In this document: piece by piece, positions 14,991 through 48,697 of the stretch
How positions within the stretch are numbered: the first letter of the stretch is position 1
Layout of the letters: the number at the start of each line of letters is the position of its first letter
Origin: an uncultured bacterium
GTDB taxonomy: Bacteria; CSSED10-310; CAZUFC01
Assembly (NCBI GenBank): GCA_964619725.1
Contig: CAZUFC010000026.1
Span: 9,729-73,728 of the forward strand
Reading direction: 5' to 3'
Length of the DNA stretch: 64,000 nucleotides
The notes under the pieces: generated by a model
Told to the model about the DNA's origin: nothing
The model's input: the letters and a program-made list of their open reading frames with translations, nothing else
The model's database searches: none
Position numbers and translations under genes: made by a program

Positions 14991-15028
14991 TTCCATTAAA
15001 TCGAAAAACAAGACCAAACAAAAAAACA

Positions 15029-15212
15029 GGGACTGATCAAACCGGGGTTACACTTTTTACAAAACCTTCGACAGTTAGTTTCAGTAATCGGAGTCGGTAT
15101 CGGGTTCGTAATCGCAATCGCAACCCAAATCGAAATCAAAATCGAAATCGAAACAAAATGATAGAATATTCCGAAAAATGTAACCTCAAAAGATGCATTT
15201 TTGATCCATGCC
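15029..15212 (+). repeat. MITE-like dispersed repeat, family A
   Basis: Begins GGGACTGATCAAA, has internal ATCGNN hexamers, ends TTTGATCCATGCC. Confidence 0.85.
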
Positions 15213-15305
15213 GAAAAAACAATAAGGGGATGCCCGAAAACAAAATTCAACCGCCATTTTACAATTTCAATGAATTTTAGTACCCTGTAGTAACGTGGAC
15301 AGTTT

Positions 15306-17878: not shown

Positions 17879-17938
17879 AGTCCCTTCCGTCCCTTAGGTC
17901 CCTTTGTCCCTTTGTCCCTTTGTCCCTTTGTCCCTTCG
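17879..17938. repeat. Tandem GTCCCTTT repeat
   Basis: gtccctttgtccctttgtccctttgtccctttgtcccttc. Confidence 0.9.
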
Positions 17939-18084
17939 TTTCTATGACCTTTCCAAGGCCGAAAAACCAGGAACAAAAAATTTTTAAAAAAAGAAACAAA
18001 TTCAATAACTTAAAACAAACATGCTCAACAAAATACCATAATAATTCAATTCATTGCTTCAATTTGAAAAAACACAAAAAGTTA

Positions 18085-18238
18085 GGGACTGATCGAACCA
18101 GGGTTAACTTTTTTCAAAACTTTTGACAGGTTGTTACAGTAATAGGGGTCGGTATCGAAATCCAAATCGAAATCCAAACAAAATGAATGGATATTCGGAA
18201 GAATCACAACCTAAAAAGACGCATTTTTGATCAATGCC
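18085..18238 (+). repeat. MITE-like repeat, family A
   Basis: GGGACTGATCGAA ... AAAAGACGCATTTTTGATCAATGCC. Confidence 0.85.
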
Positions 18239-18307
18239 GAAAATTCCACTTTTAAAGTTCATCCTGGTAAATAAACAAACCCAATCCAAAGACCGATCAA
18301 AAAAACA

Positions 18308-18336
18308 TTGACGCAATCCAAGCACAACCGTATCAT
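18308..18336 (+). promoter_or_regulatory. Putative sigma70 promoter of DGR target 1
   Basis: TTGACG-N17-TATCAT. Confidence 0.55.
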
Positions 18337-18372
18337 AAAAATCAACAAACCAACCGCTGGAAAGGAAAAAAA

Positions 18373-21300
18373 GTGACTTCATTTTCCAGGATAAACGATA
18401 ACGAATCGCCCAAACGTATGCTGAACATATTCATATCATCCACGGCAGAAGACCTGGAGACTCACAGAACCAGGCTGATCAACGCAGTCCAGCGTTCCGG
18501 TCACCATCCCTCGTATATGGAAACATTCGGCGCAAGACCCGATCAGCCGGTAGAAGGATGCCGGAAATTAATAAAAAAGTCTGACGCCGTAATAGTCATC
18601 GTCGCCTATCGTTACGGTTACGTGCCGGACAGAGACGAAGGCGGCGACGACAAACATTCCATGACCTGGCTGGAGGTCAAAGCGGCTGAGGAATTCAACA
18701 AGCCGGTATTCGCTTTTCTGGTCGATGAAAAAGCGCCCTGGACGAAAATGCGGGAAGAAAATTTGTTGAATGAGGTCCTGGAAGATGTTGAAGCATCACA
18801 ACGAATTCTGAGTAACATGCGATCACTAAGGGAATTCAAAAAATATTTAGAAAAAAAATGCATGCGCGATAAATTCCGATCAGAAGACGACTTGGCCGAA
18901 AAAGCGATTTCAAGCCTGTCCCGATGGATTAATGAAGAATTCGGACTTCGGACGAGCATCCCCGCAAGCGACGCCGTATCCGAAACGGAAATCCTGGAAG
19001 GTTATCTGAACAAACTCCTCCCGGAAACAAGATGGATCGATATAAGAGGCATAAGCGCGGAGCGGGGATCATCAAAGGACATGTGGCGTTTCCCCATTGA
19101 GGAACTTTTCACGCCGTTGAAAACCACAGGCTTCGCTAATAAAGCCGGCGGGTTCAAACCCGACATGGAAAAACGCCGACCGGATGATATGCCGCTGAAA
19201 ACGGAGGAACAGGACCAGCGACCGGAACTGTCGGATTTTCTGAAAGATAACCGCAAGCTGCTCCTGATAGGCGCGCCGGGAGGCGGAAAAACCACCTTCC
19301 TGCGCCTTATATCATGTGTGCTCGCAAAGGACCTCCTGGGAGAAAAGCATGGTTTCACTCAACCGGGCCGCTCGGTTCACCTGGGATTACACCTGACCGA
19401 TGAACCGCCGGTCCCGGTCTTCATCAGGCTGGCTCTACTGGCATCTTACATGAATAAGGATGATGACGTCCCCTGCAACGATCACATATCCCGTATACTG
19501 AATCTTTTTCAAAAACTGTACGGCGAGCAAACCAGGGATATACTCGAAAAACGCCTGAACGAAGGGCGTTGCGCCCTTTTGCTAGATGGACTCGACGAAG
19601 TGGCCGACACCGACATGCGATGCCGAATCACAAATCTGGTGGATGAAATACTGCAGAAATGGGGAGAGAACCTGGTGATAGTCACTTCCAGACCGCACGG
19701 TTACAAGGAGGTCGAAGGATTAAAAGGCGTCGTAAAACTTGAAATAGACGAGTTTAACGAAAAGGACACGGCCGAATTCCTGAATAAGTGGGTCAACGTC
19801 ATCTACTCTGAGCAGGATATGGAATCGCGGAACAGTTACCATCAGGAGCTGGAAGCGGCCATAGGATCATCCCGCAACATAAGAAGAATGGCCCGGAACC
19901 CCGTCATGCTGACCTGCCTGTGCGTGGTTCACTGGAACGAACGAAAGTTGCCGGAGGGCAAGGCTGACCTGATGAGCGCGGTATTACGATGGCTGGTGGA
20001 CGTCAGGAAAGAACAGAGGAAAAACGAAGGTTACACCAACACCTTTGCCGAAGAATGTTTCAAGTCGCTGGCCCTGGGCATGACGAATCATCCCGGAGGC
20101 AAAAAAAGCGTGGTCGACATAGCCTGGGCAGCCGAACAATTAGCCAAACCCTTCCATACCGAACAGGGAATTGACGACCTGGAAACCGTCCGAAGAAAAG
20201 GAAGTCATATCCTGGAATCAGAAATGATCTTCAGCGGCATTATAGAACGGGTCGGCCTGGGACAGTTAAGATTCTGGCACCTGACTTTTCAGGAACATTA
20301 CGCAGCCAGGCGCATTTCTGAACTGAGCGACCTGGACGATGAAACAGGATGGTGGCCTCTGATTAAACCTCATATTTACGACCAGCAATGGTTCGAACTC
20401 CTGGACCATTTCGCGGGTTGCCTCTCCAGAAAAGGAAGGGAAAAACTCAACCTGCTCGTTGAAAGGTTTCTGAACGATTGCGATGACTCAGACCTGGCTT
20501 CAGTGGCTAAAACAGTCGGCATCCTGGGACGCCTGTTGCGAGTGCTCGAAGAATACGAATATACTCCGCCGCCGCAACTAGGCTGGGAAAAAGCACGCGA
20601 ACGGGTCATGGAAATATTTAAAGTGGAAGGCGCAAAAAAAGTGAAAATCAAGCAAAGAATCACCGCAGCAGAAGCCCTGGGACAAAGCGGAGACCCCAGG
20701 TTAGAATTGCGTGAAAGGAAAAAGAATTTTAGACCGATTCCAGGACTCGAAAAGATAAAATTGGGAATATATCCCGTCACCGTGGAAGAATACAAAGCCT
20801 TTGTCGAGGATGACGGTTACCGGAAACAGGATTTCTGGGGCGAATACTGGAGGATTCGTGAAAAAAATGAATGGAATGCGCCCGATAATTGGGAGCGACA
20901 GTTGGACAAACCGAACCGTCCCGTCGTCTATGTGTCATGGTACGAAGCCAAAGCATACTGCCGCTGGCGATCCAAAACAGAACGCAGGGAGTATCGCCTG
21001 CCTGCGGAAAAAGAGTGGGAAGCGGCTGCCGTTAATCCTGACGGACCCTATCCATGGGGTAAAGAAGAACCGAATAATGAATTGGCGAATTATTATTTTG
21101 CGGGACCGAGAGAAACGACGCCTGTCGGTGTTTACCCGGCGGGCGCCACGCCTGAAGGTCACCTGGATATGGCGGGGAATGTCTGGGAATGGTGCGAAGA
21201 TGACGTTACAAAAGAATACAAGGGCGATCGCCCTCTGCGGGCGCTGCGGGGCGGCTGCTTTTGGCTCGATGCTGTTTGCCTTCGCTCGACGGACCGTGAC

Positions 21301-21375
21301 TGGCTCGAGGCTGATTACCGGAGCGACGACCTCGGCTTTCGGTTGGTCGTCGCCGCGAGCACGGTTGATGTTTGA
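18373..21375 (+). CDS. DGR target protein 1: DUF4062 + NACHT NTPase + FGE-sulfatase-type C-type lectin (CLec) domain
   Basis: IFISST.EDL...MEtFGA...AYRYG.VP..S.TW.E (DUF4062); GAPGGGKTT, LLLDGLDEV, FWHLTFQEHYAA (NACHT); PVVYVSWYEA.AYC.W, YRLP.E.EWE.AA, DMAGNVWEW, RGG, GFRLV (FGE/CLec). The start may be ATG 18418. Confidence 0.92.
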   Translation: MTSFSRINDNESPKRMLNIFISSTAEDLETHRTRLINAVQRSGHHPSYMETFGARPDQPVEGCRKLIKKSDAVIVIVAYRYGYVPDRDEGGDDKHSMTWLEVKAAEEFNKPVFAFLVDEKAPWTKMREENLLNEVLEDVEASQRILSNMRSLREFKKYLEKKCMRDKFRSEDDLAEKAISSLSRWINEEFGLRTSIPASDAVSETEILEGYLNKLLPETRWIDIRGISAERGSSKDMWRFPIEELFTPLKTTGFANKAGGFKPDMEKRRPDDMPLKTEEQDQRPELSDFLKDNRKLLLIGAPGGGKTTFLRLISCVLAKDLLGEKHGFTQPGRSVHLGLHLTDEPPVPVFIRLALLASYMNKDDDVPCNDHISRILNLFQKLYGEQTRDILEKRLNEGRCALLLDGLDEVADTDMRCRITNLVDEILQKWGENLVIVTSRPHGYKEVEGLKGVVKLEIDEFNEKDTAEFLNKWVNVIYSEQDMESRNSYHQELEAAIGSSRNIRRMARNPVMLTCLCVVHWNERKLPEGKADLMSAVLRWLVDVRKEQRKNEGYTNTFAEECFKSLALGMTNHPGGKKSVVDIAWAAEQLAKPFHTEQGIDDLETVRRKGSHILESEMIFSGIIERVGLGQLRFWHLTFQEHYAARRISELSDLDDETGWWPLIKPHIYDQQWFELLDHFAGCLSRKGREKLNLLVERFLNDCDDSDLASVAKTVGILGRLLRVLEEYEYTPPPQLGWEKARERVMEIFKVEGAKKVKIKQRITAAEALGQSGDPRLELRERKKNFRPIPGLEKIKLGIYPVTVEEYKAFVEDDGYRKQDFWGEYWRIREKNEWNAPDNWERQLDKPNRPVVYVSWYEAKAYCRWRSKTERREYRLPAEKEWEAAAVNPDGPYPWGKEEPNNELANYYFAGPRETTPVGVYPAGATPEGHLDMAGNVWEWCEDDVTKEYKGDRPLRALRGGCFWLDAVCLRSTDRDWLEADYRSDDLGFRLVVAASTVDV
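21227..21363 (+). repeat. DGR variable region VR1
   Basis: 137-nt ungapped match to TR with 18 mismatches, all at TR adenines. Confidence 0.97.
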
Positions 21376-21407
21376 ATTATTGAATATTGATCTTTATTCT
21401 TGGGGTT

Positions 21408-21426
21408 CCAGGGGCGGAGCCCCTGG
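21408..21426 (+). promoter_or_regulatory. DGR target-recognition hairpin downstream of VR1
   Basis: CCAGGGGC-GGA-GCCCCTGG, 32 nt after the stop codon. Confidence 0.85.
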
Positions 21427-21514
21427 CGAACGCAAAAACGTAATTATGTCATTTTGTAAACCCCGCCATGCAACCAAAACGACAAAATGACAAACAAAAT
21501 GACAAGCGTGACAA

Positions 21515-22522
21515 TCATTGACGGATTGCCGCAAAACCGGTCAAACCGCGATAAGAAGACAACGAACGGTAAAAATCCTCCGGTCTTCCATGTCCGGCCA
21601 GATACCGGAGCCTTCTCCTCATCCTCACCAGCATTCGCCTGGATGGTCTTATGCCGGAACGTGAAACATGATATCCCAGATAAATGAAAGCGCCCGACGT
21701 CCGCCTGGGTTGAACAGAGGGATTCTTTATCCGCAGTCGCCTATTTTTCATCAACCAGTCTACGGCTGCTTCCTTCGCCTCGGCCAGGCGCCGGCGGGAA
21801 TCGGAAAAAAGAGCTGTATCGTCCATGTAACGTTGAACGTGAGGTATTTTCAGCTCCCGTTTAAGGAAGTGGTCGAAGCCCGACAGGTAATGATTTCCCC
21901 ACCATTGACTGGTTAAGTTGCCTATCGGCAATCCGCAATCGTAAGGCGGATACCCTGGCGGCAAATTCAGCTTTTCGGAAACGTCGCGCCTTCTGTAAAT
22001 CCCACGCCCGCTGTCAGCGATTAATCTCAGCAACCATAAAAAATCATCGTCTTTTATTTTTTTCCTCATTATCTGCATCAATATGTTAATATCAATGCTC
22101 AGAAAATAATGAGCGATATCCATCAAAAGAGCAAAACGATATCGCCTGACAGCGCCGAGAAAACGAATCACGGCCCTGTGCGATCCTCTGCCCGGAAGGC
22201 ATGCGTAAGTTGTATCGATCAATCCCCTGTCCATGAACGGTGCGATAACTCTGTGAACTGCATGATGAACGATTCTGTCACGTACCGAAGCGGCAGAAAT
22301 CAGTCTTATCTTAGGGTCATTAATGAAAAACAGATGGTATCCTCCGTGACTATAATTTTTCTGCTCCAAATCACGACTCAATTTAATAATTTCTCGATCC
22401 GCTTCGGCCTCGAATCGTCTGACCGAGGGCCGGTTCCGTTTCCCGCGACGAAATTGCCGCCAGGCACGCCAAAGATTCCTTATTTCTGCCGTTTTATGAA
22501 AGAGGTCGCCGGCTCTTTTCAT
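21515..22522 (-). CDS. DGR reverse transcriptase
   Basis: PK.R.I.A..VRDRIVHHA, YAC..GRG.H.A, DI..YF.SID, GLPIGNLTSQ (DGR-type SQ motif), RYMDD, YLGY. 335 aa, with no maturase or endonuclease domain. Confidence 0.96.
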   Translation of the reverse strand: MKRAGDLFHKTAEIRNLWRAWRQFRRGKRNRPSVRRFEAEADREIIKLSRDLEQKNYSHGGYHLFFINDPKIRLISAASVRDRIVHHAVHRVIAPFMDRGLIDTTYACLPGRGSHRAVIRFLGAVRRYRFALLMDIAHYFLSIDINILMQIMRKKIKDDDFLWLLRLIADSGRGIYRRRDVSEKLNLPPGYPPYDCGLPIGNLTSQWWGNHYLSGFDHFLKRELKIPHVQRYMDDTALFSDSRRRLAEAKEAAVDWLMKNRRLRIKNPSVQPRRTSGAFIYLGYHVSRSGIRPSRRMLVRMRRRLRYLAGHGRPEDFYRSLSSYRGLTGFAAIRQ

Positions 22523-22709
22523 TTTCTGCCCCTATGCGGTTTTGTTTCTGGAATCCTTATCCCTGTATGAACATTGGACGGCTTTACAGAAACGGAAAGC
22601 CCGGCCGGACGTTCGGCGCTTGCCTACCAGAACGGCCGGGCGAAGGTTAATTCGGCATGCCGCAGCACGCCCGGATTCCTCCTGCACGGTGATCATCATC
22701 TTTCGTCAG
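22523..22709 (-). ncRNA. DGR spacer (3' part of the TR-containing RNA)
   Basis: Non-coding gap between TR and RT, with stem GCCCGGCCG(22599-22607)/CGGCCGGGC(22633-22641). The role is inferred from its position. Confidence 0.6.
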
Positions 22710-22846
22710 CGTGTTCGCGGCGACGACCAACCGAAAGCCGATGTTGTCGTTCCGGTTATCAGCCTCGTTCCTGTTACGGTTCGTTGAGCGAAGGTTATCA
22801 GCATCGTTCCAATAGCTGCCGCCCCGCAGCGCCCGCAGAGGGCGAT
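22710..22846 (-). repeat. DGR template repeat (TR)
   Basis: Lies between avd and RT, has 31 adenines and nine in-frame AAC codons, and matches both VRs at every non-A position. Confidence 0.97.
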
Positions 22847-22873
22847 ACTTTTCAGAGAAACCCTCGGTCATCA

Positions 22874-23206
22874 TTATATCTCTTTCTGCTTTTTCAACCA
22901 ACCGCCGATTTGCCGTCCTATAAGGTCCGCCTGCTGCGAAAATTCCAGGTAACTCATCTCTGTAAGTAACCCAAGCTCGAATCCCAACGCCATATATGCC
23001 CTGAGCAGACGCAGATCGCAGTCGGCATCGGTCAGGCTCTCGAACCTGTTGCGGCCTTGTATCGCAAGCGTTATATCGTCAAGAAGATGAAAGCTTGCAT
23101 TTATCAGTCTATTTTTCAATAAAGTGTAGCGCGGCAATGATTCCAGTTCCTCAAGAAGTACTCCGCATAAGGCCATAACATCTCTGTACAAAGGCGATTC
23201 TTTCAT
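22874..23206 (-). CDS. avd: DGR accessory variability determinant (bAvd-like four-helix bundle)
   Basis: 110 aa, helical, L..AD.DL..LR.Y......LG.L...Y......IGRQIGGW; directly upstream of TR. Confidence 0.9.
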   Translation of the reverse strand: MKESPLYRDVMALCGVLLEELESLPRYTLLKNRLINASFHLLDDITLAIQGRNRFESLTDADCDLRLLRAYMALGFELGLLTEMSYLEFSQQADLIGRQIGGWLKKQKEI

Positions 23207-23210
23207 CAGA

Positions 23211-23837
23211 CTAATAACCCGTCGGATCGCGGCGGCTGCCGAATCCTTGAAAACGCTTCCTGTACGATCTCTTTTCAGTACTCCTCACCAGCGATGATAA
23301 AAAAGGGATGTAATCCTGCTCTATCCTGTCCGCAAATTCAATACGCATCGATTCATCCGCTCCGTTTTTTATCAGAAGTTGAATGACCGCAGAGGCCGCC
23401 GCTTTCCGGGCTTCATTATAATGCAGCGACTTGTTGTTCGGTTGATACTCGTGACACCCCCGGCAAAGCGCCGTTAGAGAATCCTCAAGAAGACGGCTCG
23501 CCGGATGCTCCTCTCCCAGACGCAAACTGGTCTCTTTGTATATGATTATCCCCGACTTGTAAGCCCGCAGATCACGAACTGAATAATACCTGCCCTTTTT
23601 CACTTTGCCCACGGAACGGCCCACAGGGGAAATCGCCTCATCCGCCGCATCCTGCAGATTCTTCAGTCGCATGGCCGCCGCTGTCCTCTGCGCATTACTC
23701 AAAGGCAGAACTTCAGAATCGATGACCCAGCGGCCGCCCTTTTTTCGTGCCGGCAATTCATTCTTCTTAATGGCGTAACGCAACTGCCTCACGCTTTTAC
23801 CCAATAAGTCAGCAGCCTCTGATAAGGACAGTTCCAT
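23211..23837 (-). CDS. Excisionase-like HTH protein with a helical (probable four-helix-bundle) C-domain; candidate DGR accessory gene
   Basis: LSLSEAADLLGKSVRQLRYAIKKNELPARKKGGRWVI resembles HTH_17. ATG 23837 is preceded by AAGGGG. The gene ends 4 nt before avd. Confidence 0.75.
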   Translation of the reverse strand: MELSLSEAADLLGKSVRQLRYAIKKNELPARKKGGRWVIDSEVLPLSNAQRTAAAMRLKNLQDAADEAISPVGRSVGKVKKGRYYSVRDLRAYKSGIIIYKETSLRLGEEHPASRLLEDSLTALCRGCHEYQPNNKSLHYNEARKAAASAVIQLLIKNGADESMRIEFADRIEQDYIPFLSSLVRSTEKRSYRKRFQGFGSRRDPTGY

Positions 23838-23978
23838 AAGTTCCCCTTTTGTCAAGATTGTTTCAATATCGGCAGTTTGTCAATGCTGTCTTTAACAAAA
23901 CTGCTGTAATTCTTACATATTGTCAGTAATTTGTCAAGTTTAAACGGTGAAAATGACGAAATTTCGAATTTGTCGCGG

Positions 23979-23997
23979 CCAGGGGCTTCGCCCCTGG
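23979..23997 (-). promoter_or_regulatory. DGR target-recognition hairpin downstream of VR2
   Basis: CCAGGGGC-GAA-GCCCCTGG on the minus strand, 32 nt after the stop codon. Confidence 0.85.
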
Positions 23998-24029
23998 ACC
24001 CCTGAAAGACAAGAACAATTATCAATAAA

Positions 24030-27000
24030 TCAAACATCAACCGTGCTCGCGGCGACGACCAACCGAAAGCCGACGAGGTCGTCCCGGGGACCAGCCTCGC
24101 TCCAGAGACGGTGCGGAGAGCGAAGGTTACCAGCAACGTCCCAATAGCCGCCGCCCCGCAGCGCCCGCAGAGGGCGATTTGAACTCCCCCCATATTCTTC
24201 AGTAACATCATCTTCGCACCATTCCCAGACATTTCCCGCCATATCCAGATGACCGGCCGGCGCAGCCCCTTTCGGATAAATTCCCACTGGTGTGGGGCTG
24301 TCCACGTTACTGTAAAAATTCGCCAACTCAGCATCAGGCTCATCTTTCCCCCAGGGATACGGACCGTTCGAGTTCCGCGCCGCATCTTCCCATTCTTCCT
24401 CGTAGGGCAGCCGATAATTCCGTTTCCGCTCCAGTTTAGAACGCCATCGGCAATAGGCCACGGCTTCGTACCAGGAAACTTCAACCACGGGTCTATTGGG
24501 CGTTTCCAACTGGTCCTCCCAACTGTCGGGTTTAGTCCAGTCGTTATCTTCACGAATTTTCCAGTATTCGCCCCAGAATTCCTCTTTGGAATAACCGCCG
24601 TCATCGACGAAGTCTTTAAACTCTTCGACGGTTACGGGATAAATACCGAGCATAAGATGTTCGCGTCCTGGTACAAGCTCGAAGTTATTAACCCGCTTTT
24701 CCGGCGTCAGGCGAGGGTCTCCGCCCTGTCCCAGTCCTTCGGCCGCGGTAATTCTATCTTTGATTTTGACCTTTTCTGCGCCTTCAACAGTAAATATTTC
24801 CATAACCCTGTCGCGAGCCACTGTCCATCCGATCTGCGGCGGAGGCGTGTATCTGTAGACCTCCAGCACTCGAAGCAATCTTCCCAGGACGCCGACTGCC
24901 CTGGCCGTTCCCGCCAGTCCTTCTTGTTCGCCCTGTTCCAGAATACGTTTAACCAGTTTAGTCAGTCCATCCCTCCTTGTTTTTGCCAGGCACCCGGCGA
25001 AATGGTCCAGCACTTCGGCCCAGTTGCGATCATGCACATGAGGCGATATGATCCGCCACCACCCTTTTTCATCATCTTCATCCCTGCATTGAGCCAGCAT
25101 GACGGCAGCATAGTGTTCCTGAAACGTCAGGTGCTTGAACCGGACCTGTCCTTCATTGACTCTTTCCACTATGCCGCTGTCCATCATTTCACATTCTAAA
25201 AATCGAGTTCCTTTATCGTTCAATTCCCTATGGTCCGTAATGCCGAATTCGTTGTAAAACGGTCCTTTCAGAAATTCAGCCGCTTCCGAAAGATCGGCGA
25301 CGGCCTTTTTACCGGCTTTATGAGTCGTCATTTCAAATGCCAAGGTCTTGAAACACTGTTCAGCGAATTCATTGCCGTAACCCCTGGATTCACGGACATG
25401 CTTGTGGGAATTCAACAACCACTTGAGCACAGCGGCCAAAAGATCGGCTTTACCTTCCGGCAGTTTTCTTTCATTCCAGTGAACCACGCAGAGGCATGTG
25501 AGCATGACCGGGTTTTTCGCCAGTCTTCTTATCGTCGGCGATGAGATGATCGCTTCATTCAGCTCGAACCTGAGCTTACGGCATTCCCTTTGATCTTCGG
25601 GAAAAACCGCTGCCGCCCAGCGATCGATAAATTCGATTATTTCATCTTCGCCGAAATCGGAGATATGAGTGGTATTCATGGTTTCCAGTTCGGAGACTCC
25701 TTCGTATCCGAATGGACGTGAAGTGATGACGATCAGGCTCTTTTTCCATTTTTTGACGGAAGCTTCCACGATATTGATTACCTGCTCCCGTCTTTCCAGT
25801 TCAGGGACCTCATCCAGTCCGTCGAATAAAAGAGCGGCCCGTCCTTTGATCAAACGATTTTCGATAATATTACGCATGGGTTTCCCATGGATGGATTCCA
25901 GGTATTCAAAAAGGCAGCGAACAGGGTTGACGTCTCTTCCCTGGTCATTTCTGGAAATATGCTGGGAAAGCGCGGCCAGGGTAACGAATACAGGCAGCGG
26001 AGCGACTTTCGCCAGGTCAAGCCCCAGGTGGATATGCCGTTCCTTCGCTGTTTCATTTTTCATTTCCGTAAGCATATCTTCCGCGGTAACGCATGCGATG
26101 AACCGTAAAAACGTGGTTTTACCGCCGCCGGGAGCCCCTACCAGCATCAGTTTGCTGCAATCCTTCAGCAAATCTGAAAGTTTGACGTCGCGTTCTCTTT
26201 CCATACCGGCATGCTGCAATTCATCGTCACCGCCGGCGCTGCGTGATCGTCCTCTCCTGACCGCGCACTCCGGTCCCGCCGTTTTTAAAGGCGTAAACAG
26301 TTTTTTGATGGAAAAATGGCTGGCGGCATATCCTTCGCCCGCTCGCGAACCGATCCCCTGTATCTTGATGCGGGAAAATTGTGATACGACCGACTCCAGG
26401 TATTCCCTCAGCGCCTTCCTTTCAGAAACATGGTGCAGTTCTATATCCGGTCCGGGAACCGGTGGCGTTCGATCGCCCGGTCTGAGAACGTCGATTCTCT
26501 CTCGCAGATGGTTTGAAAGCGCTGTTACCACTTTTTTCGCCAGGTTATCCGGGTTCAGGAATGTCGTTAAAGTATGTTTGTCGTTAAGGTGTTTTTTGAA
26601 GTTTTTGAGTTCCTGTATCGCCTTGTAAATATCCTGAATTTCGTGAGGTTTCGCCTCTTCCATACGGTCCTGTTCTTTCGGAAGAAAACGCTTAAGAGAA
26701 TCGTCCGCAATATAAGCGAACACCGGAATGCCTTTTTTCTCAGCCGCTTCAACCTCGAACCAGGTAATGGACTTTGCTCCGTTCCCGCCTTTTTCCGCCG
26801 TAGGGACCCATCCATAACGCCATCCGACGATAACGACCAGCGCATCAGCGCTATCTGCCATGCCCAAAGATTCGTTCAAAGGTGTATCGGGACGCGCTCC
26901 GAAGCTTTCCATCCCGACTGATTGAATGTGAAGATCGTCGACAGCTTCCCGGACTGCATTGCGATAAGGCTTCAGGTCTTCATAAGTAGAGGATATAAAA

Positions 27001-27056
27001 ACGCGAAAAGCCCTGTGCCTGTCAAACGTGTTATCAGGATAACCATTTCGGTTCAT
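24030..27056 (-). CDS. DGR target protein 2: DUF4062 + NACHT NTPase + FGE-sulfatase-type CLec domain
   Basis: VFISSTYEDL..GMESFGA..GWRYGWVP; GAPGGGKTT; LLFDGLDEV; FKHLTFQEHYAA; DMAGNVWEW; identical C-terminus GFRLVVAASTVDV to target 1. Confidence 0.92.
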   Translation of the reverse strand: MNRNGYPDNTFDRHRAFRVFISSTYEDLKPYRNAVREAVDDLHIQSVGMESFGARPDTPLNESLGMADSADALVVIVGWRYGWVPTAEKGGNGAKSITWFEVEAAEKKGIPVFAYIADDSLKRFLPKEQDRMEEAKPHEIQDIYKAIQELKNFKKHLNDKHTLTTFLNPDNLAKKVVTALSNHLRERIDVLRPGDRTPPVPGPDIELHHVSERKALREYLESVVSQFSRIKIQGIGSRAGEGYAASHFSIKKLFTPLKTAGPECAVRRGRSRSAGGDDELQHAGMERERDVKLSDLLKDCSKLMLVGAPGGGKTTFLRFIACVTAEDMLTEMKNETAKERHIHLGLDLAKVAPLPVFVTLAALSQHISRNDQGRDVNPVRCLFEYLESIHGKPMRNIIENRLIKGRAALLFDGLDEVPELERREQVINIVEASVKKWKKSLIVITSRPFGYEGVSELETMNTTHISDFGEDEIIEFIDRWAAAVFPEDQRECRKLRFELNEAIISSPTIRRLAKNPVMLTCLCVVHWNERKLPEGKADLLAAVLKWLLNSHKHVRESRGYGNEFAEQCFKTLAFEMTTHKAGKKAVADLSEAAEFLKGPFYNEFGITDHRELNDKGTRFLECEMMDSGIVERVNEGQVRFKHLTFQEHYAAVMLAQCRDEDDEKGWWRIISPHVHDRNWAEVLDHFAGCLAKTRRDGLTKLVKRILEQGEQEGLAGTARAVGVLGRLLRVLEVYRYTPPPQIGWTVARDRVMEIFTVEGAEKVKIKDRITAAEGLGQGGDPRLTPEKRVNNFELVPGREHLMLGIYPVTVEEFKDFVDDGGYSKEEFWGEYWKIREDNDWTKPDSWEDQLETPNRPVVEVSWYEAVAYCRWRSKLERKRNYRLPYEEEWEDAARNSNGPYPWGKDEPDAELANFYSNVDSPTPVGIYPKGAAPAGHLDMAGNVWEWCEDDVTEEYGGSSNRPLRALRGGGYWDVAGNLRSPHRLWSEAGPRDDLVGFRLVVAASTVDV
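24042..24178 (-). repeat. DGR variable region VR2
   Basis: 137-nt ungapped match to TR with 19 mismatches, all at TR adenines. Confidence 0.97.
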
Positions 27057-27124: not shown

Positions 27125-27140
27125 TATCTTAAAGGGATTC

Positions 27141-27301
27141 GGGACTGATCACACACGGGTTACACTTTTTTCAAGTCTTGTGAAAGTTTGTTTGATTAAT
27201 CGGAGTCGGTATCAGGATCGAAATCTAAATCGAAATCGAAACAAAATTATGGGATATCCGGAATAATTGTAACCTCAAAAGACGCTTCTTTGATCAATGT
27301 C
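27141..27301 (+). repeat. MITE-like repeat, family A
   Basis: GGGACTGATCACA ... TTTGATCAATGTC. Confidence 0.85.
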
Positions 27302-27554
27302 GAAAAACGTCAGGCGAAAGCTTCAGGAAATTGAGCCACGGATTTTCACGGATCGAACACGGATGAAATGAATTTGAAATATGAAAAATGAACCGGACGG
27401 CGAAAACGCTGAACCAAAAGCTTACGCGTCTTCGCCGCCGCCGGTTATACGCATGACGATATGTTTTTGCCGTTTCCGCTGGACGTGCATGAAATCAAAT
27501 TGCTTTTTTCAGCATGTGATGCTAGATTAAAACTTAGGAATGGGTGGAGAAAAG

Positions 27555-28427
27555 ATGATGAAATTTGTTGATCCTAAAAATGATGTAGCGTTTAAAAAGA
27601 TTTTTGGAGATGAGAACAAAAAACAGATACTCATCAGTTTCCTCAACGCCATTCTGGACTATATCGGCACCGACAAGGAAATCGAAAGCATCGACATTTT
27701 GAATCCTTACCAGATTCCGAAGCTGCCGGGGCTTAAGGAGACTATTCTGGATATTCGGGCCGTAGACAGGCGCAAAGTCAGCTATATCATCGAAATGCAA
27801 GTTTTTCACACGCCTGCGTTTGAAAAACGAGTTCTTTACTATGCAGCCAAGTCCTACGCCATGCAGTTGGAAAAAGCCGAAGATTACCCCCGGCTGAACC
27901 AGGTGATCTTCATAGGTTTTCTGGATTTCATAGTATTTCGAGATGATCCTCGATACATGACGCGTCATCTGGTCCTGGAAGAAAAAACGAACGATCACTA
28001 TTTGAAGGACTTGGACTTTCGGTTTATAGAATTACCGAAGTTTACCCGGGAGCTGGATGAAATAAAAGACGTCAAAGAGAAGTGGATATATTTCGTGAAA
28101 AATGCGGCGGACCTCCAGATTATACCCGCCAATATGAAAGAGCCTCCTGCTTTGCGCGAAGCTTTCGAGTCAGCGGATCAGATGAGTTGGAGCAAGGAAG
28201 AATTGCACGCTTATGATGCGAAGGGCATTTACATCCAGGACGAACGGGGCAGAATTGAACTGGCGCTGAGGCAGGGTGAAGAGATCGGCATGGTTAAAGG
28301 CGTAAAGATCGGAGCAGAAAGGGAAAAATTACAAACAGCCCTGAAAATGAAAAGGGAAGGTCTGGATGTTTCCATTATCATGAAGGTTACCGGGCTTTCA
28401 CGTAATGATATTGCCGGATTGAAGTAA
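27555..28427 (+). CDS. Rpn family recombination-promoting nuclease (PD-(D/E)XK_2)
   Basis: DPKNDVAFKKIFG, ILDI, IIEMQV, RVLYY, FIELPKF, C-terminal ALKMK.EGL....I.KVTGLS. GGAG precedes ATG 27555. Confidence 0.92.
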   Translation: MMKFVDPKNDVAFKKIFGDENKKQILISFLNAILDYIGTDKEIESIDILNPYQIPKLPGLKETILDIRAVDRRKVSYIIEMQVFHTPAFEKRVLYYAAKSYAMQLEKAEDYPRLNQVIFIGFLDFIVFRDDPRYMTRHLVLEEKTNDHYLKDLDFRFIELPKFTRELDEIKDVKEKWIYFVKNAADLQIIPANMKEPPALREAFESADQMSWSKEELHAYDAKGIYIQDERGRIELALRQGEEIGMVKGVKIGAEREKLQTALKMKREGLDVSIIMKVTGLSRNDIAGLK

Positions 28428-28483
28428 TCTGACGGAAGATAAACGTCCGCTTCGGTTGCCGTATTTTTTTTCTTGAATTATTC

Positions 28484-28637
28484 GGGTCTGATCAAACCGG
28501 ATTACACTTCTTTCAAGTCTTTCGAAAGTTTGTTTCGGAAATCGGTGCCGGTATCGCAATCGGTATCGGAATCGTAATCGAACGAAATGATGGAATATTC
28601 GGAAGAATTCTCAAAAGACGCATTTTTAATCAATGCC
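28484..28637 (+). repeat. MITE-like repeat, family A
   Basis: GGGTCTGATCAAA ... TTTAATCAATGCC. Confidence 0.85.
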
Positions 28638-28645
28638 GATTATTC

Positions 28646-30064
28646 TTACTGCAAGTACCCCAGCGATTTCAAGTTTTCGATGAGTTCCTCGCCCATTTTT
28701 TCCTCATCAAAACTCTCCTTGAAGTAGGGGATACGATGTATGCGGGACCAGCTCTGCAACTGTTTCAGCATCTGCATGGCTTTTTGCCGGTTCTGGAAGG
28801 AGATGTTGTTTTTTTCTTCCGGGTCGTTTTCCAGGTTGTACATATTAACCCGGCATCGCTGAGGTTCCAGGCGCCAGTTGTGTATATCGCTGCGGTCTAT
28901 TCCTGTGAGTTGAACGATCAGTTTCCAGGGGTAATCTATGATGGAGAAGAGGTGACTGTCTTTCGTGTAGAAGAAGCGCTGGGCGTAACCGGTCGTTCTT
29001 GCTCCGGCGTCTTTACGGTTCATTATATCCAGTAAACTGCGTCCTTGAACGCTTTGAGGAATTTCCAGTCCCAGAAATTCCATGATCGTCGGCGCTATAT
29101 CCACCGATTCGACGACATTCGCTTCGTCCTTGCCGGGTTTGATGACTCCCGGCGCATGAAATATCAGCGGTATTCGCAACAATTCATTATATAACGTGTG
29201 ATCATGGCCCATTTTGCCGCGGTCCTGCAACTCTTCGCCGTGGTCCGCCAGGATGATTATAAGCGTATCATCGTTGAATCCATAATCCTGCAGCATTTTA
29301 AATATGCGGCCGACAGCATCGTCGCAGTATCTTATTTCACTGTCGTATGCTGCTTTGACGAACGTGAGTTCTTCAGGGCTGAGCAATTTTGTCTTATCTT
29401 TATAAAGGTTCACCATATCATTGGTAAAAGTGAAATAGGGACCGTCGTAATCCGGAAGAAATTCTTTCACATAGGGTTCATGCGGCAAAAAATCCGCATG
29501 CGGCTCCAGGTAATGCAGCCACAGAAAAAACGGTCCTTCCTTTTGCCGCAGCAGCCAGGCGCGTATGGATTCTTCTACATTGGATTCGGTTATCGAAACC
29601 CTGGAGTGGTAAAAATCATCGAAACCCCGAGTGAAACCCACTTCTTCGGATAACCAGAAATTCTGTACGAACGCTCCAGTGCGGTAGGAATGCTCACCCA
29701 GCATCCCGGCAAGCATCCGGGAATCATCCTCAAGCAGGCGTGAACCGATTACAGAATTGTGCCGCAGGGGGTAAGTTCCCGTCATGACAGATGCCAGGGA
29801 ACTGTGAGTATGCGGCGCCTGAACGAAAGCCTTATTGAACAGGAATCCGTTTTGGACCGCCTGGTCGATGCAGGGCGAAGTATTGCGTTCATACCCATAG
29901 CAACCCAGATGATCGGCCCGAAGAGCATCAATGGATATCATAACGATGTTCCAGCCCTTTCCGGGCCCCGGCGTAGAAGGACCGGAACAACCGGCGCCGG
30001 ACAAAAATGCGACAATGACCGCTAAGATAAAAAAAACAAATATTTCAAAAATGCGATAACCCAT
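28646..30064 (-). CDS. Exported sulfatase-family protein
   Basis: NIVMISIDALRADHLGCYGY, FLWLHY.EPH, YD.EI...D, ADHGEE, GHDHTLY, D.APTI, C-terminal LKSLGYL. Confidence 0.9.
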   Translation of the reverse strand: MGYRIFEIFVFFILAVIVAFLSGAGCSGPSTPGPGKGWNIVMISIDALRADHLGCYGYERNTSPCIDQAVQNGFLFNKAFVQAPHTHSSLASVMTGTYPLRHNSVIGSRLLEDDSRMLAGMLGEHSYRTGAFVQNFWLSEEVGFTRGFDDFYHSRVSITESNVEESIRAWLLRQKEGPFFLWLHYLEPHADFLPHEPYVKEFLPDYDGPYFTFTNDMVNLYKDKTKLLSPEELTFVKAAYDSEIRYCDDAVGRIFKMLQDYGFNDDTLIIILADHGEELQDRGKMGHDHTLYNELLRIPLIFHAPGVIKPGKDEANVVESVDIAPTIMEFLGLEIPQSVQGRSLLDIMNRKDAGARTTGYAQRFFYTKDSHLFSIIDYPWKLIVQLTGIDRSDIHNWRLEPQRCRVNMYNLENDPEEKNNISFQNRQKAMQMLKQLQSWSRIHRIPYFKESFDEEKMGEELIENLKSLGYLQ

Positions 30065-30205
30065 GGAACAAGCCTAAATTCCTCAATGAATGAAAAAGAC
30101 CCAGCCCTTGTGAAAAATAAAATGTTAAGAAACGAAAGTCAATTAAACGGGAGAAACCGGGTATCATTACTACAGTCTGCCGACTCCAGAGTTCAAAAAA
30201 CGAAA

Positions 30206-30362
30206 TTGATCAAAAATGCGTCTTTTGAGGGAACAATCTGACAGAATCACCCGTCATTTTGTTTCGATTTCGATTGCGACCCCGACCCCGAATCTATACC
30301 GATTACTGAAATAAAACGTCAAAAGGTTTTTAAAGAAGTGTTACCCCGGTTTGATCAGTCCC
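30206..30362 (-). repeat. MITE-like repeat, family A
   Basis: TTGATCAAAAATGCGTCTTTTGAGG ... TTTGATCAGTCCC on the + strand. Confidence 0.85.
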
Positions 30363-30513
30363 CAAAAAACGTTAAAAATGGATTCGTTGTCGTGATCATT
30401 GTCGTTGTCGAATTCAAACTTGACGCCCCTTCAGTAGAAATTGAATTTAAAACTCATTTCGCACGATACTCAGGCAACGGCAACCGCTTCGCTGACAAAG
30501 ACAACGATTCATC

Positions 30514-31065: not shown

Positions 31066-32721
31066 ATGAGAAGACTCTTTTCTGTCGGGGTAACGATGTT
31101 ATTGTATTTATCGATGCCAGAATCGGCGTTGCTTGAAGTAAAAAATGTTCCGTCCGTATATCCGACCATTCAGAGCGCCATTGACGCTTCAAATAATGGC
31201 GATACTGTGCTGGTCGCTGCGGGAACTTATTCTGAAAAGTTAAATTTTAACGGGAAGGCGATAACTGTGATAAGCAGCGCAGGCGCGGTCGAAACCATAA
31301 TCGATGCGAGTACGGTCATGAAGTCTGAAGGACAACGCGTTGCTTACGACAGTGTAGTCACTTTTCAGAACGGCGAGGGTTCTGATTCTGTTCTTGAGGG
31401 TTTTACTCTTCAGGGAGGCAGCGGGTATGGCGGCGGCAACTGGTATGGAGGCGGCATAGTATGCCTTTCTTCTTCATCGCCGACCATAAAGTATAATATC
31501 ATCAGGAATAACGCTGTTCCCTGGGGACACGGCGGCGGCATAGGAATTATGTCCAATTGTAATCCTCTGGTCGCCGGAAACATAATCATCAATAACGTGA
31601 TAACGTCCGGCGACCAGAATTGCGGGGGAGCTGGTCTTTACATTAATTGGGCCGGCCCGGTTTTAATCAACAATTTAATTGCATCGAATTCCGGAAACGG
31701 ATCGGGAGGCGGCATTCATTTAAATTCATCAAATGCGGTCCTGATCAACAACACGATATGTGATAACAGTATCTCCTATTACGGAGGAGGAATATATTGC
31801 AGGGGAAGCTCAGCCGTCAATGCGGACTTCAGTAACGGCATCATATGGTCGAACGGCGCATCGACCGGCGGTAATATTCATGTTGCGGCAGTTTCTCAAC
31901 TGACGGTGAGTTACAGCGATGTGGAAAGCGGAGCCGGTTCAATACATGTAAACTCCGGCAGCGATCTCAACTGGCTCGAGGGCAATATTGACGGCGATCC
32001 AATGTTCGTGACGGGTAATCTCGGAGGTTATTATCTGAGTCAGATACAGGCCGGACAGGCGTTGACGAGTCCATGCACAGATGCAGGCGGTTCGCCGGCA
32101 TGCGACGTATGTTTCGGCGAACCAGGCCATACCATATGCCTGAATTTTTTTACCACAAGAACAGACGATGTGCCAGACTCAGACATAGTAGATATGGGAT
32201 TCCATTACCAGACGCAACTAATCCCAACGCAAACGCCGCCGCCGACGCCGACCGTTGTGCCCACGGAAACGCCGACATCCACACAGACCTTTTCTCCCAC
32301 AGAAACGCCGACCTTCTCACCCACGGTTACATACTCACCCACTGACACGCCGACAATGACGCACAGCACAACGCCGACCCTTACCAGCACAGCGTCCTCA
32401 ACATTAACTCCCACCAGTACGGATACGAAGACTCAAACGCCCACACAATCGCCAAGCCTGACGCCCACAATTACTCCAACGCTATCACCGACATTAATTC
32501 CGACTGAAACCCAAACGCCTACCGGGTCGCCGACTGCCTCTCAAACATTCACGCCCGCAGAAACAATGACGCCGACAAACACTCCCATCCCTCCGCCCAT
32601 ACCCATTCTTAACCCAGGTTCCATGTGGTTCAAATTGCTGCTCTTAATGTTTACGGCGAGTATACTGTATAGCAGAAAACATCATCGATGCCCGGATAAT
32701 CGGTCACCAAGGTCGATGTAA
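31066..32721 (+). CDS. Secreted beta-helix repeat protein with PT linker and IPTL-CTERM-like anchor
   Basis: VPSVYPTIQSAI..GDTVLVAAGTY, GGGI repeats, YYLSQIQAGQ..SPC, long PT tract, IPILN-hydrophobic-RKHHR. Confidence 0.8.
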   Translation: MRRLFSVGVTMLLYLSMPESALLEVKNVPSVYPTIQSAIDASNNGDTVLVAAGTYSEKLNFNGKAITVISSAGAVETIIDASTVMKSEGQRVAYDSVVTFQNGEGSDSVLEGFTLQGGSGYGGGNWYGGGIVCLSSSSPTIKYNIIRNNAVPWGHGGGIGIMSNCNPLVAGNIIINNVITSGDQNCGGAGLYINWAGPVLINNLIASNSGNGSGGGIHLNSSNAVLINNTICDNSISYYGGGIYCRGSSAVNADFSNGIIWSNGASTGGNIHVAAVSQLTVSYSDVESGAGSIHVNSGSDLNWLEGNIDGDPMFVTGNLGGYYLSQIQAGQALTSPCTDAGGSPACDVCFGEPGHTICLNFFTTRTDDVPDSDIVDMGFHYQTQLIPTQTPPPTPTVVPTETPTSTQTFSPTETPTFSPTVTYSPTDTPTMTHSTTPTLTSTASSTLTPTSTDTKTQTPTQSPSLTPTITPTLSPTLIPTETQTPTGSPTASQTFTPAETMTPTNTPIPPPIPILNPGSMWFKLLLLMFTASILYSRKHHRCPDNRSPRSM

Positions 32722-32924
32722 GCATCGCAACCGGACATTCGATAAAAAGAACGGCGATATTTGGTCGCATTTATCAAGTGTGTTCAAAATTGACCTTTCA
32801 AAGTTTTATGTAATATTGCAAACTCCACTATTCTCATTTGATATGAATTTAAAAAGCCGATACTCGTCTACGGAGGCGAAACCAGGCGAATGAGAATGAA
32901 AAAATGGATTCTAAAAAAATAAAC

Positions 32925-32996
32925 TCGAAATCGAAACAAAATTAATGGATATTCGGAAGAGTTGTAACCTCAAAAGAGGCATTTTTGATCAATGTC
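32925..32996 (+). repeat. Family A repeat, right half only
   Basis: TCGAAATCGAAACAAAA..GTAACCTCAAAAGAGGCATTTTTGATCAATGTC. Confidence 0.8.
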
Positions 32997-39217: not shown

Positions 39218-39423
39218 GAGTTGACTGTTGCCGTAACATTAATAAAAAATATGAACCATAGCAAGAGATCGACAGGCGATCTGCCAAAGGATTTATACAG
39301 ATTTTTTTGGAAAAATCAAATTCACGTACTGTTTCGAAAGAGATACCTATACCGACCCCGATTACAGCCGGTTACTTCTTCTGATTTGAAAAAGCAGGAC
39401 GATCTTCGACGAATAGATTTTTA

Positions 39424-48634: not shown

Positions 48635-48697
48635 GAATGATCCATTGTTTAAATATGAGCCTGCCCACCCTAAATCTAAACAAAATCCCATCTGACT

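Follow-up and report, generated by a model that had tools for sequence, protein, structure and literature searches.

A complete diversity-generating retroelement with two NLR-like DUF4062-NACHT-CLec targets, candidate hypervariable immune sensors

Introduction

The closest described systems are diversity-generating retroelements (DGRs) whose targets combine a STAND NTPase with a C-type-lectin (CLec) domain. Dore et al. 2024 (PNAS, PMC10907252) present STAND-CLec DGR targets as putative antigen sensors, describe two such targets as common in related DGRs, place DGR 3 and DGR 6 of Thiohalocapsa PB-PSB1 in RT clade 5D, and state that experiments on any CLec-STAND sensor are lacking. The NTPase-FGS conflict systems set out by Kaur et al. 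2020 (PMC7159879) belong to the same class. A further body of work, comprising three 2026 preprints, concerns the DUF4062 (NIR) domain. Two of them (10.64898/2026.09.04.749371; 10.64898/2026.05.01.722283) show DUF4062 to be a NADase that acts against phages, also where it heads an Avs STAND protein, and the third (10.64898/2026.06.25.731849) likewise reports a NADase with anti-phage activity. The catalytic glutamate is E97 in KpSwz and E108 in PsAvs2. The terms 'retroelement', 'DGR', 'FGE', 'lectin' and 'sulfatase' are absent from the main texts of these three preprints, and the literature searched yielded no paper containing both 'DUF4062' and 'retroelement'.

Here we analyse a locus within a window of 64,000 nucleotides, the whole stretch of DNA under study. 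The locus shares with the systems of Dore et al. and Kaur et al. a cellular DGR, two targets (here T1 and T2), a central NACHT/STAND module, a single C-terminal CLec domain carrying the variable repeat (VR), a predicted cytoplasmic location of the targets and variable N-terminal effectors. It is unlike them in that DUF4062/NIR, a term missing from the main text of either paper, forms the head of T1 and of T2, in that an HTH_17 gene is fixed in the cassette, and in that no EAD adaptor or separate protease partner is seen adjoining it. PsAvs2 (NIR-STAND-TPR) similarly uses DUF4062/NIR as the head of a STAND NTPase, and T1 and T2 share the Pfam DUF4062 domain with PsAvs2, Swarozyc (KpSwz), Evangelion and Vulcan/Vesta, KpSwz also being matched by sequence; T1 and T2 have a conserved glutamate in this domain. 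However, the sensor of T1 and T2 is a DGR-rewritten lectin fold, whereas in the DUF4062/NIR defence proteins this place is taken by repeats, TPR among them, or by an 'AUX' domain. As in T1 and T2, effector, NTPase and sensor follow one another in the anti-phage bNACHT/Avs proteins, whose N-terminal effectors are likewise swapped, but their sensors are germline-fixed, whereas that of T1 and T2 appears from its sequence to be somatically rewritten; PADLOC models gave T1 and T2 a weak P-loop match and nothing else.

Results

Organisation of the retroelement

The locus extends from 18373 to 27056, exactly the outer ends of the T1 and T2 genes, and is a complete chromosomal DGR with two NLR-like targets. 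The minus strand carries, in order, T2, the HTH_17 gene, Avd, the template repeat (TR) and the reverse transcriptase (RT), with T1 convergent to this cassette. The RT (P0003, 335 aa, 21515..22522, minus strand) matches Pfam RVT_1 with 43 bits and PADLOC RT at 5.8e-36, and contains YMDD at residues 240-243 and IGNLTSQ at residue 200; the DGR-type RT motifs are YxDD and I/LGxxxSQ. It has 5320 homologues, the closest about 60% identical, and no named reference RT occurs among the 120 best. In NCBIfam, no DGR-RT model was passed, and the top match, to a group II RT model, fell short of the cut-off. The accessory protein Avd (P0004, 110 aa, 22874..23206, minus strand) exceeds the Pfam bAvd cut-off of 40 with 46.9 bits and scores 47.5 bits against NCBIfam DivGenRetAVD, under the cut-off of 80.

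The TR (137 nt, 31 adenines, 22710..22846, minus strand) was compared with two VRs of the same length, VR1 at 21227..21363 on the plus strand (codons 953-997 of T1) and VR2 at 24042..24178 on the minus strand (codons 961-1005 of T2). All mismatches fall on TR adenines (18/18 in VR1, 19/19 in VR2, 37/37 in total), with 0 of 106 non-adenine positions changed, and the chance that all 37 would fall on A, given 31 of 137 TR bases, is about 1e-24. Since the mismatches are restricted to adenines although the gene bodies are 50% identical in protein, both VRs were overwritten from this TR after the divergence of the paralogues. Genome-wide blastn found VR1 and VR2 as the only A-specific mismatch partners of the TR in this assembly. 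When 48 in-frame codons were compared, 31 of 32 TR adenines occupied codon position 1 or 2, with ten AAC codons, and the potential diversity of each VR is about 1e17 peptides. At the 3' end of the VR (IMH), the last 32 nt are the same as in the TR apart from one A>G. A GC hairpin of the DGR target-recognition type, CCAGGGGC-GGA-GCCCCTGG (21408..21426, plus strand; DNA fold z -2.71), lies 45 nt past VR1, and its counterpart, CCAGGGGC-GAA-GCCCCTGG (23979..23997, minus strand), lies 45 nt past VR2; after the TR there is no comparable fold (z 0.00, no better than shuffles).

Domain structure of the two targets

T1 (P0001, 1000 aa, 18373..21375, plus strand) consists of a DUF4062/NIR module, a NACHT NTPase, a helical linker and a CLec (FGE) domain, and T2 (P0002, 1008 aa, 24030..27056, minus strand, shared with the HTH-Avd-TR-RT genes) is 50% identical to it over the full protein length. 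The original prediction of DUF4062, NACHT and FGE-type CLec domains in both targets was borne out by HMM scanning, in which all three exceeded the Pfam cut-offs (DUF4062 24.7, NACHT 26.7 and FGE-sulfatase 23.3 bits): DUF4062 at residues 19-104 of T1 (66.9 bits) and 18-104 of T2 (65.7 bits), NACHT at 296-474 (41.4) and 394-481 (31.5), and FGE-sulfatase at 796-992 (138.6) and 800-1000 (136.3). On the DNA, these correspond in T1 to 18421..18942 for the TIR-like module (residues ~17-190), 19258..19794 for NACHT and 20758..21348 for CLec, all on the plus strand, and in T2 to ~26487-27008, ~25614-26150 and 24057-24659. Walker A (GAPGGGKT) is found at residue 300 of T1 and 307 of T2, and Walker B at 402 (LLLDGLDE) and 409 (LLFDGLDE), respectively, which together with the domain order agrees with the effector-NTPase-sensor layout that had been proposed. 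Neither protein has a TM segment or a signal-peptide-like N-terminus (maximum 19-residue hydropathy 1.11 and 1.57), so that T1 and T2 are predicted to be soluble cytoplasmic proteins, as had also been anticipated.

The DUF4062/NIR head

The head of T1 has 7024 phmmer homologues, mostly matching residues ~14-190, and was modelled by AF2 with a pLDDT of 92.5. The modelled fold is a TIR/N-ribosyltransferase-like flavodoxin fold; its best structural matches (Z 11-13 over ~120-135 residues, also found by Foldseek) are DNPH1, MilB, nucleoside deoxyribosyltransferases and the TIR domains of SPARTA, SARM1, TIR-1 and RPS4. By VIA Z, nucleotide N-glycosidases rank first (DNPH1 13.0, MilB 12.3) and TIR domains slightly lower (SPARTA 11.9, SARM1 11.3), so that the fold alone leaves NAD+ as the substrate unfixed. 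The same spectrum of structural matches is reported for PsAvs2 in the 2026 NIR preprint. By sequence, the only PDB matches of the head are TEP1 and the DUF4062 domain of KpSwz (chain 10wc; E 1.3e-5, or 9.6e-12 with a profile).

Within the motif S-M-T-W-L-E, Glu101 is invariant (48/48 aligned sequences, and 16/16 in another alignment), while E50 is present in 44 and E128 in 47 of the 48. The equation of E101 with the published catalytic glutamate rests on its conservation rather than on a residue-level alignment, because the HMMER alignments of T1 to the KpSwz chain end at residue 87. All three glutamates are nevertheless retained in T1 and T2, the heads of which keep every invariant acidic residue of their family, so that the catalytic glutamate is present whichever of them it is. 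By analogy with the published proteins, the heads of T1 and T2 may be NAD+-cleaving effectors; the earlier proposal of a TIR-like effector thus finds support in the modelled fold and in the NADase role that the three 2026 preprints assign to DUF4062.

Among the 120 best homologues, the NACHT-CLec body is constant despite changes of the head, which is NNH5 in 20, Metallophos in 19, DUF4062 in 18, HD-CE in 13 and SIR2_2 in 6, more rarely TIR/SEFIR (4), Trypsin_2 (2), PNP_UDP_1 (1) or Mrr_cat (1), and none or another in 36. Effector swapping usually takes this form, a constant chassis bearing exchanged heads.

The CLec/FGE domain

The CLec domain of T1 was modelled with a pLDDT of 90.0, and the VR occupies the last ~45 codons of each target, as the original prediction had placed it. 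The VIA Z scores of the modelled domain are 24.0 for EgtB (4x8b), 21.1 for TvpA (2y3c), 19.6 for human FGE and 14.8 for Mtd. Superposition on TvpA gave an rmsd of 3.0 with 190 residues aligned and 30% identity, and TvpA was also recovered by sequence (E 6.1e-6, the alignment covering positions 101-223 of a query of 231 residues). TvpA and Mtd (1yu0-1yu3) share with T1 a CLec/FGE fold with a C-terminal VR; however, they are surface or phage-tail binders with no NTPase or effector, whereas in T1 and T2 the fold is the predicted sensor of an intracellular switch. The 18 variable codons of T1 (962-987) correspond to model residues 193-218, which form a short helix, a strand and loops. The region equivalent to the two catalytic cysteines of human FGE (C336/C341) is in T1 and T2 the VR itself; the two Cys that T1 happens to have there correspond to Ser and Asn codons in the TR, and T2 has none. 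The NCBIfam equivalog scores of the domain fall far under the cut-offs for EgtB (86 vs 360), SenA (76 vs 420) and PvdO (57 vs 500), and likewise for OvoA and GldK.

The HTH_17 gene and recurrence of the layout

Between T2 and Avd lies a gene for an excisionase/MerR-like HTH_17 protein (P0005, 214 aa, 23211..23855, minus strand; Pfam HTH_17 39 bits). The identical gene order recurs at a second locus of the same genome (contig C9) and in a MAG of another phylum (L010), where the genes at the same position encode proteins 44% and 41% identical to P0005, respectively, over ~200 aa. At three loci in two phyla, the HTH_17 gene keeps this place, with Avd on one side and the co-oriented target on the other, and the atlas clusters contain HTH_17 proteins of 184-205 aa.

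Discussion

The DGR-diversified DUF4062-NACHT-CLec pair is a clean, complete example of an already described class of candidate hypervariable immune sensors. That the class was known had been stated from the outset, in agreement with Dore et al. and Kaur et al. The suggestion that the layout of the locus might be new does not hold, because two-target DGRs were described by Dore et al. 2024 and the same gene order is found at the contig C9 locus and L010. The idea of two specificities is consistent with the difference between VR1 and VR2 at 15 of 43 residues.

We consider it likely that the DGR diversifies the lectin tips of two NLR-like cytoplasmic sensors, in which ligand binding leads to NACHT assembly and NAD+ depletion. 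In this mechanism, RT and Avd would make copies of the TR RNA that carry errors at adenines and replace VR1 and VR2, thereby providing two binding sites from one template. The ligand recognised by the CLec tip would be cytoplasmic and non-self, probably a protein from a phage or mobile element, and its binding would release NACHT-driven oligomerisation. The clustered DUF4062/NIR heads would then hydrolyse NAD+, stopping or killing the infected cell (abortive infection). The patchy distribution of the system also speaks for this reading: a search of 30 further genomes, 12 of them from this phylum, gave a match of NACHT-CLec length in 1 and a full-length match in none.

The same device might serve a purpose other than anti-phage defence, such as self/non-self or kin recognition, or programmed death in a consortium or filament, comparable to the fungal NLR-type het loci; we regard this as unlikely. 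The genome contains 27 matches to T1, including ~12 NACHT-containing and ~16 CLec-containing stretches, and at least 4 DGR-type RT loci, an abundance of paralogues that fits a large recognition repertoire. A non-defence purpose would also be in keeping with the absence of a defence island around the locus, the neighbouring genes (a secretin, Big_1 surface proteins, a PDDEXK_2 transposase-like gene and, 1.6 kb away, a sulfatase at 28646-30064) including no known defence gene, and with the link to a multicellular habit drawn for such systems by Kaur et al. 2020 (PMC7159879) and Dore et al. 2024 (PMC10907252). However, receptors predicted to be cytoplasmic are better suited to sensing intracellular invaders than to cell-cell recognition, and all characterised bacterial DUF4062 proteins are anti-phage according to the 2026 preprints.

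That the DGR is now inactive, the receptors being fixed alleles and the adenine pattern a historical footprint, seems to us quite improbable. It would account for what is seen in other samples of this mat study, where one contig (X3 record 18) spans VR1 and another (X4 record 29) most of VR2, each with 0 differences, and no VR variants are listed in the contigs of the four runs of this single microbial-mat study. Yet these contigs have depths of 3-8 and drop minority alleles, so that rare variants are lost, and all parts of the element are intact, namely the RT ORF with YMDD, Avd, both hairpins and both target ORFs. The identity of all 106 of 106 non-A positions in both VRs with the TR argues for recent copying.

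Instead of triggering the NADase, the CLec domain might act as a neutralising binder or effector, or else be a genuine enzyme of the FGE/EgtB type that works for the nearby sulfatase. Such roles would fit the classing of FGS domains as 'neutralizing' effectors by Kaur et al. 2020 (PMC7159879), the proximity of the sulfatase gene and the enzymes at the top of the structural matches, but are made very improbable by the hypervariability of the catalytic-cysteine region, by the equivalog scores and by the three-part arrangement, in which the enzymatic heads at the N-terminus are swappable and CLec takes the sensor position.

For the preferred reading, that of two diversified NLR-like sensors, the HTH_17 protein probably regulates the DGR cassette or serves it as an accessory factor. 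More speculatively, and with little expectation on our part that it will prove correct, it might be a dedicated fifth DGR component that gates transcription of TR-RT or of the receptors, making rewriting inducible. In a weaker variant, T1 and T2 could co-assemble as a sensor pair, by analogy with paired plant NLRs. If true, HTH_17-gated rewriting of NADase-armed NLR receptors would be a step nearer to a regulated adaptive immune system.

A convergent pair of candidate receptors and its template repeat

The whole locus spans about 8.7 kb and comprises two intact receptor genes, one template repeat (TR) and genes for a reverse transcriptase (RT), the accessory protein Avd and an HTH_17 protein. 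It is bounded on one side by the start of target 1 (T1; 18373-21375, forward strand, a 1000-codon ORF) and on the other by the start of the convergent target 2 (T2; 24030-27056, reverse strand, a 1008-codon ORF). Between the targets, and all on the reverse strand, lie the HTH_17 gene (23211-23855), the Avd gene (22874-23206), the 137-nt TR (22710-22846) and the RT gene (21515-22522), whose product carries the motifs YMDD and IGNLTSQ. The DUF4062-NACHT-CLec layout claimed in the original prediction is borne out by a Pfam scan, which places DUF4062, NACHT and FGE-sulfatase in this order on both proteins, each above its gathering score. End to end, T1 and T2 are 50% identical.

The variable repeats VR1 (21227-21363, in T1) and VR2 (24042-24178, in T2) align to the TR without gaps, and all of their differences (18 of 18 in VR1, 19 of 19 in VR2) fall at TR adenines, with 0 of 106 non-adenine positions changed. 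By arithmetic from the mismatch counts, the probability of such an adenine-only pattern arising by chance is about 1e-24. In a comparison of 48 in-frame TR codons, ten of them AAC, 31 of 32 adenines occupy codon position 1 or 2, and the approximately 18 variable codons (962-987 of T1) would yield on the order of 1e17 peptides. Within the final 32 nt, VR and TR are the same but for one A>G, a near-constant 3' end as expected for an IMH. An identical 8-bp GC stem (CCAGGGGC-GNA-GCCCCTGG) lies 45 nt beyond VR1 and VR2 alike; the TR flank folds no better than shuffled sequence. Across the 9.17-Mb assembly, only VR1 and VR2 match the TR with the adenine pattern. Since the non-adenine VR positions still equal the TR, although the bodies of the two genes now encode proteins only 50% identical, both VRs must have been rewritten from this TR after the T1/T2 split.

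The locus is also present in four runs of one microbial-mat study, as contigs only, at depth 3-8. VR1 is spanned by a contig of another sample with 0 differences, and part of VR2 (24064-24228) is covered by another contig, again with 0 differences. The mat contigs break at the VR and TR, as would be expected at repeats, and no variants, joints or indels are listed across the contigs of the four runs at this depth.

The NACHT domain has the Walker A motif GAPGGGKT and the Walker B motif LLLDGLDE or LLFDGLDE. The structural model of the sensor (residues 770-1000; pLDDT 90.0) matches EgtB (Z 24.0), FGE (Z 19.6) and Mtd (Z 14.8), and the DGR protein TvpA aligns to it at Z 21.1 over 190 residues with 30% identity. 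A catalytic role as an EgtB/FGE-family enzyme is rejected: NCBIfam equivalog scores lie far under their cut-offs, and the stretch in which FGE has its cysteines is here the VR itself. T1 and T2 are both devoid of hydrophobic segments and of an N-terminus resembling a signal peptide, in keeping with the cytoplasmic location that had been proposed for them.

The DUF4062 head and its exchange among homologues

A phmmer search of 1.8 billion representatives returned 7024 homologues of the head, with matches typically spanning residues ~14-190, so that the head module is about twice the length of the Pfam model. Its AF2 model (pLDDT 92.5) is an alpha/beta fold with five strands. The top structural matches are DNPH1 (Z 13.0), the CMP N-glycosidase MilB (12.3) and nucleoside deoxyribosyltransferases; TIR domains follow in SPARTA (Z 11.9), TIR-1 (11.8), SARM1 (11.3) and RPS4 (11.2). 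The suggestion of a TIR-like effector thus finds support in matches at Z 11.2-11.9. The same spectrum of structural matches as for the T1 head is described for PsAvs2 in the NIR preprint. In the PDB, the only sequence relatives of the head are TEP1 and the DUF4062 chains of KpSwz; KpSwz (10wc) is absent among the Foldseek and VIA matches listed (structure library to 2026-04-08).

Three 2026 preprints (10.64898/2026.09.04.749371, 10.64898/2026.05.01.722283, 10.64898/2026.06.25.731849) show that DUF4062, now called NIR, splits NAD+ into ADPR and nicotinamide and brings about abortive infection, one of the cases described being the head of an Avs STAND protein. Glu101 of T1 is kept by every aligned sequence (48 of 48 and 16 of 16), and T2 retains its equivalent together with E50 and E128. 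HMMER alignments to KpSwz stop before this position, and we therefore infer, rather than read from the alignment, that Glu101 corresponds to the published catalytic glutamate.

Heads vary widely among the best 120 full-length homologues, all of which keep the NACHT-CLec body. NNH5 (20 of 120), Metallophos (19), DUF4062 (18) and HD-CE (13) are the most frequent, followed by SIR2_2 (6), TIR/SEFIR (4), Trypsin_2 (2), PNP_UDP_1 (1) and Mrr_cat (1); the other 36 have no recognised head or another one. This variety on a constant NACHT-CLec body follows the effector-swapping pattern known from bacterial NLR-like defence proteins.

Dispersed repeats and the surroundings of the locus

Direct repeats at 18107-18243 and 27164-27306 flank the cassette. 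They could be taken for the ends of a mobile cassette, a reading that we reject, as copies of this ~165-nt intergenic repeat are dispersed genome-wide (543 HSPs on 156 of 344 contigs, with about 250-300 close to full length). Near-full-length copies are 70-83% identical and equally frequent in both orientations. Besides the copies next to the targets (18076-18250 and 27138-27306), others lie at about 15020-15217, 28481-28645, 30205-30365, 32922-32994, 39416-39572, 48503-48637 and 61766-61925, and copies are found upstream of T1, of T2 and of a target in a second locus of the same genome, on contig C9. The consensus starts with GGGACTGATCAAA and finishes with TTTGATCAATGCC, so that its ends are short inverted repeats, and it includes TTGACA as well as an ATCGAAATCGAAA tandem. 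Rfam has no match for it, and RNAalifold gave no consensus structure on either strand from 60 of 248 copies. The repeat could be MITE-like, or it could serve as a protein-binding element.

The genes neighbouring T1 and T2 encode a type II secretin, Big_1 proteins, a PMP-repeat protein, a PDDEXK_2 transposase-like protein and a sulfatase, among which no defence island is recognisable. The PD-(D/E)XK 'transposase' family gene (PDDEXK_2; 27540-28427, forward strand) directly adjoins the cassette, with the sulfatase gene (28646-30064, reverse strand) next; neither has an evident connection to the DGR. Five long ORFs of 369-1089 aa (31066-32721, 34495-35604 and, on the reverse strand, 36779-39217, 48743-51280 and 51277-54546) give no Pfam hit at E <= 1e-3 or 1e-4. 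Positions 17886-17940, within the long intergenic stretch ahead of T1, hold a brief series of GTCCCTTT-like units (tcccttaggtccctttgtccctttgtccctttgtccc).

Promoter-like sites lie upstream of T1 (18308-18336), T2 (27124-27095) and the HTH gene (23937-23909); they are hints only, the total of 12 such sites not exceeding that in shuffles (9.9 +/- 3.6), and terminator-like sites show no enrichment either. Rfam yields nothing at gathering score over the window, and its sole match on 17900-18400 is at chance level (E 0.94). In PADLOC, T1 and T2 are unmatched apart from mad8, on the P-loop (E 0.002).

Related loci and their templates

The order target, HTH_17, Avd, TR and RT, then a convergent second target, is repeated on contig C9 (100822-108800), outside the window, in a sister DGR whose RT is 59% identical to that of the window and whose TR/VR matches are at 88%. 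Its targets are a Metallophos-NACHT-CLec protein of 1206 aa and an ORF of 617 aa that is reduced to residues ~10-71 of the DUF4062 head and the C-terminal half (500-994). With neither a NACHT domain nor the invariant glutamate, the shorter protein is a deletion derivative or else a decoy-like receptor. The same gene order occurs in locus L010 of a Ca. Multivoradales MAG (RT 53% identical). The idea that the locus layout might be unreported does not hold, given these recurrences and the two-target arrangement of such DGRs already described in Dore et al. 2024 (PMC10907252).

The HTH_17 protein, ~200-214 aa long, is sited between the co-oriented target and Avd in all three loci (23211-23855, reverse strand, in the window; C9:104619-105239; L010:12253-12849, reverse strand). 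The three proteins are mutually 38-44% identical over ~200 residues, share a conserved C-terminal EKRS..RF..GRR tail and have no similarity to Avd (best E 0.067). We know of no description of this protein as a DGR accessory gene.

Among 80 related loci surveyed on contigs from one genome per species, 14 have a DUF4062 head, 10 an RT within the flanks and 9 convergent CLec pairs; an RT is adjacent in 1 of the 14 DUF4062 loci (L022). In at least eight cases, RT homologues and NACHT-CLec homologues with a different head come from contigs of equal length, a hint that the RT lineage and the NACHT-CLec chassis travel together. The source genome (90.9% complete, 6.5% contamination) has a large repertoire: T1 is matched by 27 stretches, of which about a dozen include NACHT and about 16 include CLec, on C8, C23, C155 (three), C280/C324, C226 and other contigs, and there are at least four DGR-type RT loci (C26, C9, C280, C226). 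A DUF4062-NACHT paralogue at C6:15020-16510 is broken and contains an in-frame TAG. Thirty other genomes, a set without a same-family relative, contain 0 full-length matches and 1 of NACHT-CLec length.

In five other genomes with DUF4062-NACHT-CLec genes, no TR is present at the two RT loci sampled per genome. Whole-genome DNA searches for a cognate TR covered three of them. For locus L044 of a Ca. Methylumidiphilus alinenensis MAG (G004), the TR is found beside an RT on another contig (C128:3567-3705), and 17 of the 19 positions at which the VR differs are TR adenines. This genome matches the L044 VR stretch at 22 further places spread over many contigs, and 14 of these matches are 75-90% identical over ~140 nt or more (L107-L109 belong to the same MAG). 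On this comparison at least one DUF4062 locus besides that of the window, L044, is a target in trans, and it looks as if a single TR serves a large set of targets in trans in this MAG. For L012, the whole-genome search found no cognate TR, and for L020 just an 87% match in the neighbouring target, which is not adenine-specific.

Two DUF4062-NACHT-CLec paralogues on one 12,815-nt metagenome contig (P0007 and P0012, alignment A2) have identical C-terminal VR-region peptides despite clear divergence elsewhere (their identities to T1 are 48% and 47%). The same cDNA may have overwritten both, or neither may have diversified.

Discussion

To the extent that sequence and models allow, our data support the overall reading of the locus. 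In the mechanism that we infer from well-supported parts, the DGR would programme the specificity of a cytoplasmic sensor, which would trigger NACHT assembly and, through it, NAD+ depletion.

The class has been published before, as have the two-target arrangement and the effector family, and the discovery value is small. In the literature searched, no paper brings DUF4062 together with a retroelement, and none brings bNACHT together with diversity-generating. The main texts of the three 2026 DUF4062 preprints are without DGR, FGE or lectin, and DUF4062 goes unmentioned in those of Dore et al. 2024 (PMC10907252) and Kaur et al. 2020 (PMC7159879); DUF4062-CLec architectures may already appear in SI Fig. 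S10/S11 of Dore et al. 2024 and in the figure data of the NIR preprint. Modestly new are the explicit pairing of a DGR with a head of the newly characterised DUF4062/NIR NADase family and the conserved HTH_17 cassette gene.

Among bacterial proteins, DGR-diversified NLR-like proteins come closest to immune receptors that are diversified somatically, and the locus described here is a candidate both compact and complete. Since the 2026 work on DUF4062, the activity of its output domain family, NAD+ hydrolysis, is known and easily assayed, which makes the locus a practical construct with which to ask whether a DGR is able to set the specificity of a switch for abortive infection.
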